A DNA stretch of 64,000 nt from Pseudogymnoascus verrucosus. Lineage: Eukaryota. The stretch lies in assembly GCA_001662655.1 (NCBI GenBank), contig KV460215.1; one strand, given 5' to 3'. Below are positions 3,312 to 52,167 of the stretch, piece after piece. Within the stretch, counting starts at the first letter, position 1. Every line of letters begins with the position of its first letter. The notes below the pieces were generated by a model. The model saw nothing but the letters and a program-made list of their open reading frames with translations. It made no database searches and was not told the DNA's origin. The position numbers and the translations under genes are program-made.

Positions 3312-4677
3312 GTTATGTGTCTGAGAAGGCTTGAGATGCAGCGCAGTTTGTATGACCCGTTGTTGAGCCTTACCTGCGGCTGTCACAGAAGTTTTGGATA
3401 GCATCCAGGCTAGTTTGAAGCAAAATATCTATAGTTGAGCAAAAAGGGTCGTCTTTGGGCGTGCTACTGAGATTCTTGTTGGGGAAACGGGGATTTGCTT
3501 GTAGAAATTAGTATATCTATACACGCAGGAGATATAAGGATGCTGAACGACCGAGAGAAAGCCGTCGACCGAGGGACAGGGCTTCCGGGCTAGCCAAGTA
3601 GTGGATCGGCAGGAATTTATAAAAGAAGCTAGCAACGATATTGCACGAGAAGTGGTGAGAATGGTTGAGCTACTGATGAGGCTCGGGAGAAAAAAGCGGG
3701 GAGGGAAGGGGTCGCCGATGAGATAGATATACCGGAAGCAGTTTAGCGTTAAGATCTAAATCTGCACAGTCGTGGGATCTCGTGGGATTTTACTTTCACA
3801 TGTTTTGAAGCGGCGCTACCGAGATTAGTCAGCAGAGCTTAAAGGCTTACTTTCGTTACTTTTGCACGATATAGATTGAAACTCTCCGGAACTACGTCAT
3901 ATGTCAGGGAGTCGAGTCCAAAATGCCGCTACATGTGAGAATCCGCGGTCAACGGGGCTCGGGAGCATGTGTCGATCACGACTATTTCAACGTGCAGAAT
4001 TTATTTATTAGCCGTCCGAGGAGGAGCCAGAGGAGAGTATAGGCCATGATATTTGGAATAGCAATGATGGGGATAGTTGCTACGGCCCTGTGAACCCTGC
4101 AACCCTAAAGCCGGGGTTCTATCAGTCCGTGTTACGGTGATGGCCTCGTCCAGAACACAGATTGCGCGGCATGACAGCCTACAAAAACTCACTAACACGG
4201 CCAGGCTGAATTGCCAGCCATTAAAAGCTTGTGAGGCTATCCCCTGTCATACGACGTGCTGCGGGGTAAAGTCTACGTCCGCCAATAAAGTAGAGCGCCC
4301 TTCTTTCATAATCAAGGGATCCAATATGAGACCTCTTAGTAATTGCATCAGGGAGGCGTTTTGGTGCATCCCGACGACCTCATAAATGCGGTCGACAAAT
4401 GGGAAAGGCAGTGTCTAACACAACCTGGGCTGGAGCTGAAAAACAGTGCATGTTGTGGCTTTTATCACCCTTGTAGCATTTGCTGCCAATGCGGGACAAA
4501 AGCTTGCCTTATCTCTGTGACATATTACACATATAAGTATGCTTGGGTGAATGGATGGAGCTGTGTCGAGCTGTGATATTCTCCTAAAATCTACAGAGAT
4601 TCTTGAATGCCTTTGATCAGTGATATCTACTCTACGAAACATCTAAACCTCCATCTATTCCAGTGACAACACTCACA

Positions 4678-46660: not shown

Positions 46661-47927
46661 CTAATTAGCAACCGGTTTATCTTCCTCTTCCTCTTTCTCG
46701 GTTTCCTTCGTCTCCCCAGCCTTCGACTCCCCAGCCTTCGACTCCCCAGCCTTCGACTCCCCAGCCTTCGGGGGCCCTCCTAGAGGGGGTCCTCCCTTAG
46801 GCGGGCCTGGCGTGGCCTTCGGAGGACCTCCACTCTTAGGCGGCGGGGGTGGCGGCGTGTTGGTAGGTTTCGCACTCGGCACGTAGTCTAACTCTCTGCT
46901 CTTTTGCTCGCCTTCCATAAAATAATCGTCCAGCTCTCCTCCTTTCGCTTGTACTGTTTTATCATGTCCGCGCCCGTGTTTCCTATGCGCCTTGTCTGAC
47001 GAAGCTGGAGGCGGCGGAGCTGCTCCAGGCAACTGTGCGGGGATGAGGAACTCGGAAGGAGCGGTTGTGATAGGTGGGGCACCGGTGGCAGAGAGCGCAG
47101 CCGCCCTTGACTCCTCGTTCGAGAATCGTGCCGGCTCGCCATCGAAAAGCGTCGATCCCGGCTCGGCAACGGGCTCACTGAGCGGCGCGGGTATGCGGTG
47201 CAGCGCACCATATCCAAGTACACAGCCTAACGCACCCTCTCCGCCCCAGTCGCGGCTCGGTTGGATGGTGACTTCGCGCGTGACATCGTATTCGTTGTTG
47301 TACACGTACAGCCTGAGGGGCCGGCCGATGTGGTCTTCTACCAGCTCACCGAGGCCGGCTTCGCCGTGCAGGATTCCCTCAGGGGTGCCGAGGATATAGT
47401 CGCTGTAGGGGAGGAGGCCGGCGAGGTCGGCGGGGGAGTTGGCGGGGACGTCGAGGATGTGCCAGATTGTTGCGACGGTGGAGAGGGGCGCGTGTTGGAG
47501 GGATATGCCTAGGGTGGGGTTGTCCGAGGGGATGGGAACGTGCAAGGTGCGTGTTCGTTGGCCCTGGTAAGTAATAACGCGTTAGTTGAGATTATGGGAG
47601 CTATGGATGAGGGAGGAGGGAGGTGTTACCTTTGCGCTCCAGAGTCCAAGAGTGACGGTGCCTCCAGCGCAGTTGCGGACTTCTTGGGCGAAGAGACTGG
47701 GATCTGAGTCCTCCTAATTCTTTATTAGAGATTGTCTGCTGAACTATTGAGTGAAACCATACAATCATGCGCCCATTGATCCCAACTACAAAATCAAACC
47801 AAGGCTCAATTGGAAGGTCGGCATTCTTATTTCGTAGGACTTGGAAGCCAAATGCATTGTAGGTGGACGTCTGGGCTGGCGCGTCGGAATCGAGCCTTGA
47901 TATGAAGCGGTTTAGGGCGTTAAACAT
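46661..47927 (-). CDS. GRH1: GRASP55/65 Golgi reassembly stacking protein
   Basis: MFNALNRFISRLD; GFQVLRN, IEPWFDFVVGING, NSPADLAGLLPYSDYILG and WGGEGALGCVLGYGALHRIP. Confidence 0.93.
46712..46770. repeat. 15-bp coding tandem repeat (about 3.9 copies) encoding KAGES
   Basis: (CTCCCCAGCCTTCGA)x3 plus a 14-nt partial copy. Confidence 0.9.
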
Positions 47928-48476
47928 CTTGATTCCAGCCGCATGCAATTGTATTATATAGAGATGTTGGGATTCAGCAATCTTTTGTCAGTGACTTTCA
48001 AGACGGAGACTTGTAGCTGGTGATGTTTATGGTTAATGGAGCTCTGGCCTCACTTGCAACAAGGTACGTACTGTATCATGTTTCGTCATTGGCTAAATTT
48101 ACATCTTCAAGGCTTGGCACGCAGCCTTGTGCCCACCACGCTAAATACCTCAGCCCTGTCAACTTGTCAAGAGGATAATTTTTATATTTTACAAAGAAGC
48201 TGGGCAAGCAAATCGTGGAACTGCTTGGCAACAAACTGTGATGTATTTCACCGCTACGCTCTAATCTACTTACTTCAGCTACTACTCGCATCCACTTCTT
48301 TGACTTTTGCAGAGTCCCTCAAAATCGAAGTGCGGGGCTGCCACCGCCACAACTAGACTTGGCTTCACACGAACCGACCCGTCGACATAACTGTGCGACA
48401 AATATTGGCAAGGGTTATTAAGACAGTGAGCTCCAAGAAATACTTTCTTACTACGGCCAGAGCCTCATTGGGTCTA

Positions 48477-49568
48477 ATGGCGTCCAACCCGCAGACGTTT
48501 CAATCGTTCGGCCGTCCGCTGGCGAACTCCTCCAACTTTTTTTCACAGAGGGACAACGAACATCAACTCTACGGTCTATTCTCTGATCTGAACCTCAACG
48601 GAGAACATCGCAAACAACCACTTTTTACACCGGCCCCAGTTGCTGTTGTTTCTTCTGAGGACATTGAACTGAACGACGCACGATCTACCGAGAGAAAGCT
48701 CACAACAAAGCAACTTCGCAAGCAACGCGAAGCGGAACAGGCTGCGAAAACTCCGAAAAAACCCAAAACCTTAGCATCTAAAGCCAAGAAGCAAAACAGA
48801 ATCAAAATCAGATTTGAGAGACGAAAGAGCCAAAAGGATAGACTGGACGCAATCAACCGCGACCCGAAACTGGTAGAGAAAAGGATACAAGCCTTGAAGG
48901 AGCTCCACGCATGTGCTCAAGATTTACACAACGCCACTGAAAACAAGGTCGCCCTTAAGCAGGCACTGCAAAATCTCACCGAAGCATTAGCTTCACATAC
49001 GGAGAAAACATCCGCGGAGTTATACGCCGAGCTCTGCCAGACCAATAATCAGAAGAGTGCTGAAGTATTAATCGGAAATACAAACGATACACAAAGTTCG
49101 GAGGAATCTTTCAGGAACTTTGTCGATAATTTGGAGAAGCCAGTTCTACCATCAGAGCCCGTTTCGACTTCGCGGGGCAAGAAAACTGCCAGGGTAAAGG
49201 AGTTGCCTGTCAACATCGCCCAGCCAACATTTAAGCTTCTCGCTCCATCGAGGGAGCAGAAGATCAGAAACGCCCACAACTGGAAAAGAGCCAAACCACT
49301 TATTATCGACCTCACAAAAGCGATCGAAAGAAGTGATATTAGCATCGCCAAGTCATACGCTGCAGCACGTGTTCCAATTAAGAACCTGGCTGACGGCTTA
49401 GAAAGAGATTTTGCCGACGTTATATCAGAAGTCATTCCGTCATTTACCAGAGACAGAATTGCGTATTTTGAACGACCCTTCATTACCCTGAAGGAGACCA
49501 ACCAAATATCACCCTCTAATACTCCCATTGCAACCAATGGCGGACTCGACCAATCAATGTCAGCCTGA
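48477..49568 (+). CDS. Hypothetical basic, helical protein (363 aa) directly upstream of TGS1
   Basis: Uninterrupted ORF from ATG 48477 to TGA 49566-49568; K/R-rich NLS-like stretch and coiled-coil-like segment; no family recognised. Confidence 0.65.
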   Translation: MASNPQTFQSFGRPLANSSNFFSQRDNEHQLYGLFSDLNLNGEHRKQPLFTPAPVAVVSSEDIELNDARSTERKLTTKQLRKQREAEQAAKTPKKPKTLASKAKKQNRIKIRFERRKSQKDRLDAINRDPKLVEKRIQALKELHACAQDLHNATENKVALKQALQNLTEALASHTEKTSAELYAELCQTNNQKSAEVLIGNTNDTQSSEESFRNFVDNLEKPVLPSEPVSTSRGKKTARVKELPVNIAQPTFKLLAPSREQKIRNAHNWKRAKPLIIDLTKAIERSDISIAKSYAAARVPIKNLADGLERDFADVISEVIPSFTRDRIAYFERPFITLKETNQISPSNTPIATNGGLDQSMSA

Positions 49569-49569
49569 G

Positions 49570-50298
49570 ATGGATGATCTACAACAGAGCTACGTTGATG
49601 AATTTGGGCTTACAGATGAGTGCCATCACTATGAAAGTTTAGCAGAAGTGCCTTGGGACCTTCAGAAATATTGGCAGCAACGATACAGTATATTCTCATT
49701 ATACGATGAGGGGGTATACATGACAGACGACTCATGGTTTGGGATAACTCCGGAGCCAGTTGCCGTCCAGGTAGCTTCAGACATGGCAGCCTCGATAGAT
49801 CCTTCAAAAACTACAATAGTCGACATCTTTGCTGGCGCAGGGGGGAATTCTATTGCCTTCGCTCGGTCAGGACGCTGGGAAAAGGTCATTTCAATAGAGA
49901 AGGATCCTTCTGTGATTGCTTGCGCCAAAAATAACGCGGCAATCTACGGTGTTGCGGACAAGATTACTTGGATCAATGATGATTGCTTTGATTTTGTTTC
50001 CAAGGATGGGAATATTGATTTCAATACATCCACCATCTTCGCCAGCCCACCTTGGGGCGGCCCAGGCTATCGGGGCGACGAGATCTTCAATCTCGATACC
50101 ATGCAGCCGTACTCCGCCAAGCAGATCCACGAGATGTGCAAGTCGACGGAGTGTGCCTTATTCTTGCCGAGGACATCCGATTTGCGACAGATTGCGAAAC
50201 TTGCACCGGAAGGAGACAAGGTCGAGGTCGTCCAGTATTGCATGGAGGGTGCCAGCAAGGCTTTAGTTGCATATATACCAGCCACTCAGAGCAGCTAA
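49570..50298 (+). CDS. TGS1: Trimethylguanosine synthase (RNA cap guanine-N2 methyltransferase)
   Basis: KYWQQRYSIFSLYDEG, SWFGITPEPVA, VDIFAGAGGNSIAFA, FASPPWGGPGY and LFLPRTSD motifs. An alternative in-frame ATG lies at 49537. Confidence 0.93.
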   Translation: MDDLQQSYVDEFGLTDECHHYESLAEVPWDLQKYWQQRYSIFSLYDEGVYMTDDSWFGITPEPVAVQVASDMAASIDPSKTTIVDIFAGAGGNSIAFARSGRWEKVISIEKDPSVIACAKNNAAIYGVADKITWINDDCFDFVSKDGNIDFNTSTIFASPPWGGPGYRGDEIFNLDTMQPYSAKQIHEMCKSTECALFLPRTSDLRQIAKLAPEGDKVEVVQYCMEGASKALVAYIPATQSS

Positions 50299-50830
50299 AT
50301 TAATGAAAATGAACATGAAGTCAAAAATATGCACATATCAACCCCTCATGACAAGATAATTGCTTCAGGGGAAACTTCCAGTAACGCTTAATTCTGGGGT
50401 AAGGGCGGGGAAGTGGGGTAAACGGTGCTGCTAAAGTGCCGGGTGGAGTTAGCCGATGTCACCGACACAGCCAACTTTAATATAACTCCTCACTTGTAGT
50501 CTCCACACTGAGAACAACAGCCTGAATACGCAGCATGATCATCAATAGTTGTTCCTGTTCCGAACCCCTCAGTCCATATTGCGTTACATGCGGCTGCTAA
50601 TAGGACACAATATAGCTACTTTTTCCTTTTATCCGAAGCCGTTGTTGGTTTAGTTAGCAGCGAAATGATAATCGTATGGCGAAATTAGCAGACGCCAGTG
50701 CTGACGCCTGTGCCATGCCATGGCCCATATAAGATGAAGCCTAGGCGCAATTGATCATGAAGGTGACCGTTAGCTATACTTCAGGGCACAGAAGAGATTC
50801 AAGAAGTTTTACGTAGTTTGAAAGCTCAAG

Positions 50831-52167
50831 ATGCGTTCGGCTTTGGCATACGTAGCGCTTGCGGCAACCTTCGTCCAGCAAGCTGTGACTGCGCCGACGG
50901 TTGGCCTTCCAGCACACGGAAGCAAAAATGTCCACTGGGTAGATACCTGGGCTACTATGCCACAACTTACAGAAGTTGGCAATCTTCCTCCTGCTCCATA
51001 CGTATGTGTCTCGATATATAGCAGTCGTGCCTTCTAACCCCTTTTTAGACCCAACCTGACTCTGTTTTCGTTGACTCGACCGTTCGCGCGACATTCCAAG
51101 TGTCAATCCCAGGGAAAACCGTCCGTCTCAGGTTCACGAATGTATTTGGCGCCACGGACTTGCCAATCGATGCTGTGACCATTGCTCTCCCTAATGGCCC
51201 AGCGGGCACCCGCGCGATTCATACCCAGACACTTCAGAAGGTCACATTCAGTGGCAAGACCTCGATCATAATTCCCAATGGTGCTCAAGTGGTCTCAGAC
51301 CCAATTCACTTTGAGGTCAAGGCCAGGCAAGACGTTGCTGTCACCTATTACACGGCAGCCGGCCAAGCCGGCAACAGCATCACCTCCCACCCAGGGAGTC
51401 GTGTCACGAGTTGGTACTCGCGTGGTAACCACGTCACCGCTGCCAACTTGACGGATGCTTCCGTTGCAAGCTCCGAGCATTGGTACTTCGTAAGTGCCCT
51501 GGAAGTCGACGACTCCCTCGGCAGCACCTTCGCCATCGTCGGCGACAGCATCACCGATGGCCGCGGCAGCACCACCAACGGCAACAACCGCTGGGCCGAT
51601 CAGCTCTCCCTTCGTCTCCTAAAAGACCGACGCACAGCGCATATCGGTATTGCCAACGAGGCAGCTGGCGGCAACCGCGTGCTTCACGACGGCCTTGGAC
51701 CTAACGCGCTTGGTCGTATCGACCGCGACGTGCTGGCGCAACCAAACGTCAAGTATGCTATGATTTATGAGGGCATCAATGATATCGGGACAGGCAATTC
51801 CACGACCTCCGTCGCTGAGCAGCTCGAGACGTCAGACCGACTGATCTGGGCATACCAGCAGATGGCGGAGCGAATCCACGCGGCAGGGATCAAGGTATTC
51901 ATCGCCACTATCACGCCGTTCAACCACCCAGCCGACCAGTTCCAGCCTGTGTGGGACGCGGAGAGAGAGAAGACGAGGCAGCGCGTGAACAAGTGGATCC
52001 GCGAGAATAAGGTGTTCGATGCGGTGCTGGACTTCGATAAGGTTGTCCGAGACCCAGAGCATCCGAATGTAATGCAGGTGCGGTATAACTTTGATGACTT
52101 CCTACATCTCGGTGTTGAGGGTTATCGCGCGTTGGCAGACTCTATCCCTCTCTCTATATTCTCGTAG
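50831..52167 (+). CDS. Secreted SGNH/GDSL lipase-esterase (intron 51002-51048)
   Basis: Signal peptide; HWVDTWATMPQLTE; GDSITDG, GGNRVL, EGINDIG and DFLH SGNH blocks. Confidence 0.92.

Follow-up and report, generated by a model that had tools for sequence, protein, structure and literature searches.

In snRNAs, snoRNAs and telomerase RNA the trimethylguanosine cap is the work of TGS1, and to our knowledge little is known about how the level of this enzyme is set. The closest described arrangement is that of Drosophila, where the moi-Tgs1 transcript is presented as carrying Tgs1 in second place, behind another ORF (PMC7289441), and where an upstream ORF of 178 aa is given for the locus (PMC2276209). 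Bicistronic transcripts of green algae that are read by leaky scanning are described as having a weak start context at ORF1 and as containing few internal AUGs before ORF2 is reached; an mRNA that loses the ORF1 start codon is said to become monocistronic, with a long leader, and to express more ORF2 (PMC11892635). Co-transcribed genes are also reported in fungi, in a long-read survey of Agaricomycetes and for glpks3-glnrps7 of Glarea lozoyensis (PMC4503453, PMC4471562). A literature search for Tgs1 dicistrons and uORFs gave, among the matches listed, only the Drosophila case as relevant and nothing that joined fungi and TGS1; a search for bicistronic genes of Pseudogymnoascus matched only a grapevine virome and returned no paper on the locus.

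The locus described here lies in a stretch of 64,000 nucleotides of Pseudogymnoascus verrucosus contig KV460215.1, referred to below as the window, and its features are collected in Table 1. An upstream reading frame, ORF1, is followed by TGS1 with a short overlap. We put the probability at roughly 0.6 that a single transcription unit spans ORF1 and TGS1 and yields two separate proteins, with TGS1 reached by scanning.

Table 1. Features of the ORF1-TGS1 locus, in coordinates of the window.
Feature	Position	Strand	Description
Exon 1	48244..48425	+	5' leader without ATG; approximate start, taken as the first base of the relative's RNA-like contig (X2)
Optional intron	48426..48494	+	69 nt, GTGAGC...CTAAT...CAG; contains the ORF1 start codon
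ORF1	48477..49568	+	basic, helical protein of 363 aa without a known family; internal Met at residue 361 only
Sole ATG between the ORF1 and TGS1 starts	48911..48940	+	opens a 9-codon out-of-frame ORF; position not conserved
Dual-coding block	49535..49569	+	conserved, 35 nt; TGS1 start, last 11 ORF1 codons and ORF1 stop
TGS1 CDS from the conserved start	49537..50298	+	253 aa, RNA cap guanine-N2 methyltransferase
Second in-frame TGS1 ATG	49570..49572	+	G at -3, G at +4; lineage-specific; the ATG of TGA-G-ATG

The landmarks from which the first-pass annotation started were all found again: the 363-codon ORF with its last codon GCC (49563-65) and stop TGA (49566-68), the single G at 49569, the ATG in the TGS1 frame 1 nt past the stop, and the TGS1 frame open from 49492 in the ORF scan. 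The motifs that it named are likewise present (G/GTACGT at 48064, AG ending at 48278 and 48312, CTAAT at 49516-20 and CAG at 49561-63). A metagenome scan for the ORF1 context returned one relative only, L001, in which ORF1 is 60% identical and is again followed by TGS1, with synteny and overlap kept. The comparison covered 351 aligned codons and gave a dN of 0.28, with 91, 74 and 217 differences at the first, second and third codon positions. Because of this distribution, ORF1 is, on the substitution pattern, a real coding gene; dS is saturated in this comparison, and for this reason no whole-gene dN/dS ratio is given.

When 1.84 billion cluster representatives were searched with a profile, 11 clusters proved to be related to ORF1; an alignment search for distant ORF1 homologues, in which scores were computed for the 8000 candidates with the most words in common, yielded three proteins. 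No Pfam family matched (the best, AA_kinase, had an E of 0.1 and fell below the cut-off), the distant homologues P0016 and P0018 had no Pfam match either, and ORF1 had no match in the Atlas. The AlphaFold model is all helical with a pLDDT of 66.6. Foldseek gave 0 matches in the PDB at E <= 0.001, and the wide VIA-align search had nothing at Z >= 8, its top match reaching a Z of 6.2 (rmsd 3.2, 54 aligned), which is the level of a generic helical hairpin.

The downstream ORF is TGS1, as it matches PF09445 with an E of 1.4e-42 and 145.5 bits (cut-off 22) over profile positions 2-163 of 165. The invariant TGS1 motifs are common to the window protein and nine other TGS1 sequences, and the dN relative to L001 is 0.14. 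The idea that many Pezizomycotina have TGS1 as a second cistron, raised by 45 long TGS1 proteins, was rejected: in all four of the kelch or PF12157 fusions inspected (P0039, P0040, P0045 and P0052) TGS1 is N-terminal, therefore these are fusions with a downstream neighbour, contrary to that idea.

The region between the two start codons is nearly devoid of ATG. Positions 48480-49536 (1057 nt) hold one, and no other kilobase of the 64-kb window, whichever strand is taken, is as poor in ATG. When sliding windows were counted on both strands (12,590 windows, mean 18.1 ATG), three or fewer ATGs were found in 44, every one of which starts at 48081-48511 on the plus strand. The corresponding 1084 nt of L001 (4004-5087) also contain one ATG, at 4342, which opens a 39-codon ORF, and the low-ATG windows there (39 of 1606) all lie over ORF1. 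Out-of-frame ATGs were rarer than in permutations of synonymous codons (P 0.009 in the window, 0.038 in L001), while the same test on the TGS1 controls gave P values of 0.14 and 0.93. Within the ORF1 family, no Met occurs from the start Met to a D-x-S-M site near the C-terminal end in sets of 11 and 21 sequences. Met is missing from distant ORF1 homologues as well, and the trait may belong to the protein family and be unrelated to TGS1.

Few AUGs between the two starts and conservation of both ORFs as coding are what a dicistron read by leaky scanning should have, and both were found. The context of the ORF1 AUG at 48477 is C at -3 with G at +4. The conserved TGS1 start, ATG 49537, likewise has C at -3; a conserved TGS1 AUG with C or T at this position is not a strong start, and a purine there is seen only at 49570, which is not conserved.

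Transcript evidence came from four of the 24 runs listed (X21, X1, X2 and X3), and no RNA run was listed for the window's own sequence. X2 and X3 belong to two studies and derive from a relative that differs in 85 of 1817 bases, an identity of about 95%. The label "RNA?" on the runs is a guess, and they were taken as RNA because of a GT..AG joint and a gap in the X2 cover. This joint, 48425 to 48495, removes the intron with the ORF1 start codon. It was seen at a depth of 15.2 spliced versus 18 unspliced in X2 and of 243.7 versus 395.7 in X3; it is absent in X21, and X1, with 12 of 30 bins covered, does not reach the intron. The unspliced share of 55-60% could be incomplete splicing. The A of the ORF1 ATG is the predicted branch A of the intron's CTAAT. 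L001 has an intron of 67 nt with matching donor, branch/ATG and acceptor, and its spliced form carries a TAA in the ORF1 frame two codons upstream of the junction, so that this form cannot encode ORF1. In the spliced form of both species the first long ORF is TGS1. Intron folding was unremarkable in both species (z +0.45 and -0.43), and the single Rfam match was to a nematode snoRNA model on the minus strand, with an E of 0.29 and 21 bits against a gathering threshold of 65.

It had been proposed that leader splicing decides between two proteins of one unit, and this general idea is supported, with a different intron, 48426-48494, in place of the one first drawn. The leader exon with ATG 48036 and donor 48064 was not supported, as X2 cover over 48074-48247 was 0 and 0.86 (0 in 48074-48160) and the X2 gene contig begins at 48244; no ATG occurs between 48241 and 48477. 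The 10-codon uORF that would arise by splicing that exon to 49564 is arithmetically correct, but no contig contains the exon or the joint. Nor did any contig join 48063 or 49193 to 49564. In X2 and in X3, one contig each is colinear with 48495-50311 or beyond and has no internal joint, although contigs are unable to show one molecule with both ORFs or the starts and ends of transcripts. The X2 body contig had a depth of 45.7, more than the 33.2 of both junction forms summed, an excess that additional transcript starts within ORF1 might explain. For X3 there was no such excess (626.7 in the body contig, 639.4 in the summed junction forms).

The possibility was considered that the locus produces two overlapping independent mRNAs, TGS1 having a promoter and transcription start of its own toward the 3' end of ORF1, while the ORF1 mRNA reads into TGS1 or ends inside it. 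Independent mRNAs are the default arrangement of eukaryotic genes, which counts for this explanation; overlapping transcripts would be merged into one contig, and the greater depth of the X2 body is in its favor. However, it leaves unexplained an ATG desert of 1.06 kb in two species and the avoidance at the synonymous level, it does not account for the conservation of an intron whose splicing takes out the ORF1 AUG, and the X3 body shows no such excess. We consider it a rather unlikely explanation.

The two ORFs are tightly packed. An earlier in-frame TGS1 ATG, at 49537, had been missed by the first-pass annotation, and from it the overlap with ORF1 is 32 nt. L001 keeps the 32-nt overlap in a block in which 32 of 35 bases are identical with the window (49535-49569) while the flanks have diverged, so the packing, as judged from the alignment, exceeds chance. 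Of three relatives that can be read at ATG 49570, only one has Met there (P0005 M, P0008 V, L001 G). L001 has no ATG at the equivalent of 49570, and its TGS1 starts at the equivalent of 49537. On this comparison the conserved TGS1 start is ATG 49537 and not that of the TGA-G-ATG, and the stop-start spacing is not conserved.

These observations bear on termination-reinitiation, in which ribosomes would stop at 49566-68 and restart at 49570 or back at 49537. The stop and start are 1 nt apart here, the surrounding 35-nt block is conserved, and a dearth of AUGs near the stop is, in the algal account, also compatible with reinitiation (PMC11892635). Nevertheless, ATG 49570 is present in one of the three relatives, and ORF1 stops earlier in the X2/X3 relative, P0006 and P0010; a conserved pair of adjacent or overlapping stop and restart codons was not found. 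RNA structure at the junction was no better than in shuffled sequences (folding z -1.09 and +0.87 in the two species), and ATG avoidance far upstream is left unexplained. Moreover, reinitiation after an ORF of 363 codons is inefficient without special elements, which counts against it. Taken together, reinitiation is improbable.

A further alternative is a single ORF1-TGS1 fusion protein, made through a frame-bridging intron or a +1 frameshift at GCC-TGA-G. Four NCBI models of the locus or its close relatives (V499_04332, V501_06464, VE03_00476 and V493_03031; 561-607 aa, TGS1 91-100% identical) join both ORFs. The NCC-TGA-G form of the stop is common to the window and L001, and in other Leotiomycetes TGS1 is extended in frame at its N-terminus (P0036, P0037 and P0038). 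However, the four models use four different predicted introns, at weak donors, and a single splice junction common to the relatives and seen in RNA was not found; X2 and X3 contain no joint within 48495-50311. One model drops conserved TGS1 residues and at least two drop the conserved C-terminal end of ORF1; V499_04332 does include the intron 48426-48494, which the RNA-like contigs support. The +1 frameshift that had been put forward is likewise unlikely: a 1-nt insertion behind 49490 in the X2/X3 relative breaks the frame relation and shifts the end of ORF1 to the third frame, ORF1 of P0006 and of P0010 is cut short, and the conserved frame relation and shift site that a programmed event would need, usually with a stimulatory structure, were not found. 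Neither an intron nor a frameshift explains the ATG desert, and a fusion protein is very improbable. The practical side of this result is that the four public gene models are probably false fusions. A 1-nt assembly error splitting one ORF, the remaining alternative raised at first, had no point in its favor and was ruled out, since contigs of X21 (two forms, with 1 and 52 other letters) and X1 (0) cross 49286-49751 gap-free, about 7-8 of 10-11 stand-alone ORF1 proteins of other assemblies end at the same place, and L001 has the same two frames.

If ORF1 and TGS1 are indeed one unit giving two proteins, transcription would start near 48244 and continue through both ORFs, which would thus lie on single molecules, and the TGS1 AUG 49537 (in this strain also 49570) would be reached by ribosomes scanning from the cap. 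TGS1 could be fed by two routes. By the first, the intron would be spliced from a large share of the transcripts and the ORF1 AUG lost, leaving TGS1 as the first long ORF after a nearly AUG-free leader of about 1.2 kb. By the second, the intron would be kept and ORF1 translated from AUG 48477, where the base at -3 is C, with a share of the ribosomes possibly bypassing this AUG and reaching TGS1. We infer that the organism of the window splices as the X2/X3 relative does.

The one-unit reading can be extended to a regulated switch, in which intron retention would give ORF1 and splicing TGS1, ORF1 would be a physical partner or a regulator of TGS1, and the Met-free ORF1 family would mark an arrangement that is old and widespread in Pezizomycotina. 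We regard this extension as speculative and unlikely. The one piece of evidence on ORF1-TGS1 binding is a weak pass in a complex prediction, with a score of 0.52 against 0.02 for the best of three controls, at least 48% contact agreement between runs and a partner pLDDT of at least 47. Of 78 solved complexes 51 attain the mark of this test, as do 2 of 108 mismatched pairs, but scores of 0.60 or below comprise only 5 of the 78 solved complexes and all four passing mismatches (of 180). If the switch were true, an enzyme of snRNA-cap maturation would be coupled to how its own mRNA is spliced.

The apparent position of TGS1 as a second cistron hints that it tolerates, or profits from, low translation limited by scanning. 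An intron that carries the start codon of the first cistron would be a simple natural switch for obtaining two proteins from one gene, and ATG deserts could help to locate further such loci in fungal genomes.

Glarea is a Leotiomycete too, and the fungal polycistronic listings, in the parts available, show no case of TGS1. The ORF1s of the algal bicistrons are described as mostly short, while here ORF1 has 363 codons and the ORFs overlap by 32 nt; unlike in the green algae as described, the ORF1 start codon is here removed naturally by splicing. The Drosophila locus, moi-Tgs1 (CG31241), is similar in that TGS1 is second and the first ORF encodes an unrelated protein, and in that a small intron is described as interrupting the first ORF (PMC7289441). 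It differs in being an animal locus whose first ORF is given as the telomere-capping protein Moi, with two products that are said to act independently, and the Drosophila passages describe neither a start-codon intron nor an ATG desert. TGS1 appears, as in Drosophila, as the second cistron of a conserved mRNA, here a fungal one, but behind a first gene that is probably unrelated to the Drosophila one.

The 363-codon ORF without a known family (ORF1) described in the first-pass annotation is present in the window, as are the ATG one nucleotide behind it, the +1 frame open from 49492 and all the sequence motifs named there. The +1-frame product is the RNA cap guanine-N2 methyltransferase TGS1 (PF09445, E 1.4e-42, profile positions 2-163 of 165), whose earlier in-frame start, ATG 49537, had been missed. 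The first exon of the divergent GRASP55/65 homologue starts only about 320 nt away from the ORF1 leader start.

Features of the ORF1-TGS1 locus and its neighbours
Feature	Position	Strand	Remarks
GRASP55/65 homologue, divergent, upstream	46661-47927	minus	first exon starts at 47927
Intron	48426-48494	plus	GTGAGC ... CTAAT ... CAG; spliced and unspliced forms in X2 and X3
ORF1	48477-49568	plus	363 aa; ends GCC TGA
TGS1 from earlier in-frame ATG	starts 49537	plus	253 aa; 32-nt overlap with ORF1
Second TGS1-frame ATG	49570	plus	one G after the ORF1 TGA; +1 frame
GDSL lipase, downstream neighbour	51049-52167	plus	

ORF1 is a genuine gene and belongs to a small family. Its protein matches part of the NCBI model V499_04332 from Pseudogymnoascus sp. 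VKM F-103 at 100% identity. Its conservation upstream of TGS1, suggested earlier as a check, was found in L001, a metagenome contig of a related fungus, where the order GRASP, ORF1, TGS1 is kept and ORF1 (60% identical) shows coding-type differences, 91, 74 and 217 at codon positions 1, 2 and 3 of 351 aligned codons (dN 0.28; dS saturated). Searched with a profile, 1.84 billion representatives gave 11 ORF1-related clusters, including proteins of 403-459 aa with an acidic DDDEEL-type tail. Outside Pseudogymnoascus (P0016-P0032), the family extends about 55 residues past the LNFND motif to this acidic C-end; the tail is missing where TGS1 overlaps ORF1. In both the window and L001, the +1-frame ATG of TGS1 is embedded in the motif's N-D/G codons (AAT Gxx). 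Pfam has no family and Atlas no neighbour for ORF1. The predicted structure is all helical (pLDDT 66.6); Foldseek returned no matches to it at E <= 0.001, and VIA-align gave a best Z of 6.2 with no informative fold match.

The ORF1 start codon lies within an intron. The last two letters of the CTAAT, which stands 17 nt before the acceptor CAG, form the ORF1 ATG with the next G, and splicing therefore takes out the start and the first six codons. Upstream in the window, the spliced form has no in-frame ATG but 23 sense codons and then TAG. L001 has this donor, branch/ATG and acceptor as well, set in an otherwise diverged leader (intron of 67 nt), and a TAA stands in its ORF1 frame two codons before the splice junction. 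The spliced form is unable to encode ORF1; its first long ORF is TGS1 in both species.

Contigs from four of the 24 listed sequencing runs (X21, X1, X2 and X3) were compared with the window. X2 and X3 belong to two different studies of a relative with about 95% identity to the window. They were taken as RNA, although none of the runs is so recorded, because they carry a GT..AG joint that the DNA-like X21 lacks and because the promoter gap is uncovered in X2 (0 in bin 48074-48160). Depths of the spliced and unspliced forms at 48426-48494 were 15.2 vs. 18 in X2 and 243.7 vs. 395.7 in X3; the intron retention could reflect slow splicing. One contig of each run is colinear with 48495-50311 or beyond, and the body contig is deeper than the junction forms in X2 (45.7 vs. 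33.2) and not deeper in X3. The X2 exon 1 contig begins at 48244, so the leader exon proposed earlier (ATG 48036, donor 48064) falls outside the X2 transcript, in DNA untranscribed in that run. In the X3 relative, 28 nt (a doubled 14-mer) are inserted at window position 48156, between the GRASP gene and the ORF1 leader. At the other end, in 50307-50311, the X2 contig with ORF1 and TGS1 stops 13 nt past the TGS1 stop codon, and the next contig has a third of the depth (13.3 vs. 45.7). The poly(A) site may lie very close to this stop codon.

From the ORF1 start to ATG 49537 there is a single ATG, at 48911, which opens a 9-codon ORF. Sliding windows of 1057 nt on both strands of the 64 kb (12,590 in total) contained a mean of 18.1 ATGs; 44 had three or fewer, all on the plus strand with starts at 48081-48511. 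L001 too has a single ATG, located elsewhere (at 4342, opening 39 codons), and the 300 nt upstream of its ORF1 lack any; the low-ATG windows of L001 (39 of 1606) all lie over ORF1. Synonymous-codon permutation gave 5.0 +/- 1.6 expected internal ATGs vs. 1 observed in the window ORF1 (P 0.009) and 3.9 +/- 1.5 vs. 1 in L001 (P 0.038), with no depletion in TGS1 as a control (P 0.14 and 0.93). ATG avoidance exceeds what the amino-acid content of ORF1 gives. The family proteins, in sets of 11 and 21 sequences that include some only 31-38% identical, lack Met between the start and a single conserved site close to the C-end, which in Pseudogymnoascus is downstream of the TGS1 start. Scarce AUGs upstream of a second ORF are described as a mark of scanning-dependent bicistrons in PMC11892635.

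The best-supported model, with a probability of about 0.6, is a single transcription unit that makes two products, ORF1 and TGS1; it is built on contigs, which prove neither single molecules nor transcript starts and ends, and on RNA from a relative. Intron-retaining mRNAs would give the ORF1 protein, and spliced mRNAs lacking the ORF1 AUG would give TGS1 behind a long, nearly AUG-free leader. Leaky scanning past the ORF1 AUG, which has C at -3, may contribute to TGS1 output. Both routes would require the ATG desert. A TGS1 promoter inside ORF1, also proposed in the first-pass annotation, is unlikely; as the sole source of TGS1 it would leave the ATG desert hard to explain.

The TGA-G-ATG junction stands in the window, but its conservation does not hold among relatives: the equivalent of ATG 49570 is GGG in L001, Val in P0008 and Met in P0005, and is thus kept in one of three readable relatives. 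The L001 TGS1 start corresponds to 49537, again with a 32-nt overlap, and 32 of the 35 bases at 49535-49569 are identical in window and L001 with diverged flanks on both sides, consistent with reading in both frames. The TGA-G-ATG form is therefore a local accident and the overlapping start the conserved feature. The overlap itself is dispensable, since one extra base behind 49490 in the X2/X3 relative ends ORF1 before the TGS1 start and ORF1 is likewise short in P0006 and P0010. Among 11 aligned ORF1 proteins, the C-end falls at the same residue in eight, nine residues further in one and about 20 residues short in these two. Termination-reinitiation from the ORF1 stop to TGS1 is quite improbable.

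A fusion of ORF1 and TGS1 by splicing or +1 frameshift is doubtful in the extreme. Fourteen ORF1 relatives were found among 3131 candidates, ten as stand-alone ORFs and four as NCBI models of 561-607 aa that include the TGS1 domain. The frame-bridging site differs in each of the four: P0002 deletes the conserved TGS1 stretch KYWQQRY, P0005 and P0008 the ORF1 C-end, and P0009 both the ORF1 C-end and the TGS1 N-end. Relatives with 59-66% identity conserve the dropped ORF1 C-end at the protein level, and the models are probably artefacts. In the X2 and X3 contigs, ORF1 is not spliced to TGS1 and the suggested intron 49194-49563 is not seen. A 1-nt assembly error splitting a single ORF can practically be dismissed, as contigs of other runs cross the junction gap-free (two forms in X21 across 49286-49728; X1, 49427-49751, with no other letters than the window). 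The two X21 forms, about 99% and 88% alike here and elsewhere, indicate two strains or a mixed sample.

Complex prediction for ORF1 residues 72-350 with TGS1 scored 0.52 (best of three controls, 0.02), in the range up to 0.60 that held only 5 of 78 solved complexes and all 4 passing mismatches (of 180); in calibration, 51 of those 78 complexes passed the mark, as did 2 of 108 mismatched pairs. Contact agreement between runs was at least 48% and partner pLDDT at least 47. This is a weak hint only that ORF1 may be a partner of TGS1.

Polycistronic transcripts have reportedly been found in Agaricomycetes, and an operon-like gene pair in the Leotiomycete Glarea. Long TGS1 models of other fungi were rejected as further cases of upstream partners, TGS1 being N-terminal in all four examined. 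In these (P0039, P0040, P0045, P0052) and further long models from several genera, TGS1 is fused to its downstream neighbour, kelch in Hypocreales and PF12157 (TAF1-like) in Eurotiomycetes and other classes; such recurrent fusions may reflect very tight spacing or read-through on the downstream side of TGS1. In some other Leotiomycetes (P0036, P0037, P0038), TGS1 is extended N-terminally, in frame, by 200-300 Ser-rich residues, judged by eye to be unrelated to ORF1; P0037 is a single uninterrupted 452-aa ORF. A literature search found no paper on this Pseudogymnoascus locus. In Drosophila moi-Tgs1, as described in PMC7289441 and PMC2276209, Tgs1 is likewise the second ORF of a bicistronic transcript; the upstream ORF, which contains a small intron, codes for a telomere-capping protein. 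The green-algal bicistrons of PMC11892635 use leaky scanning, and deletion of the ORF1 start codon there leaves a monocistron with a long leader; by analogy, the intron described here would achieve the same naturally.
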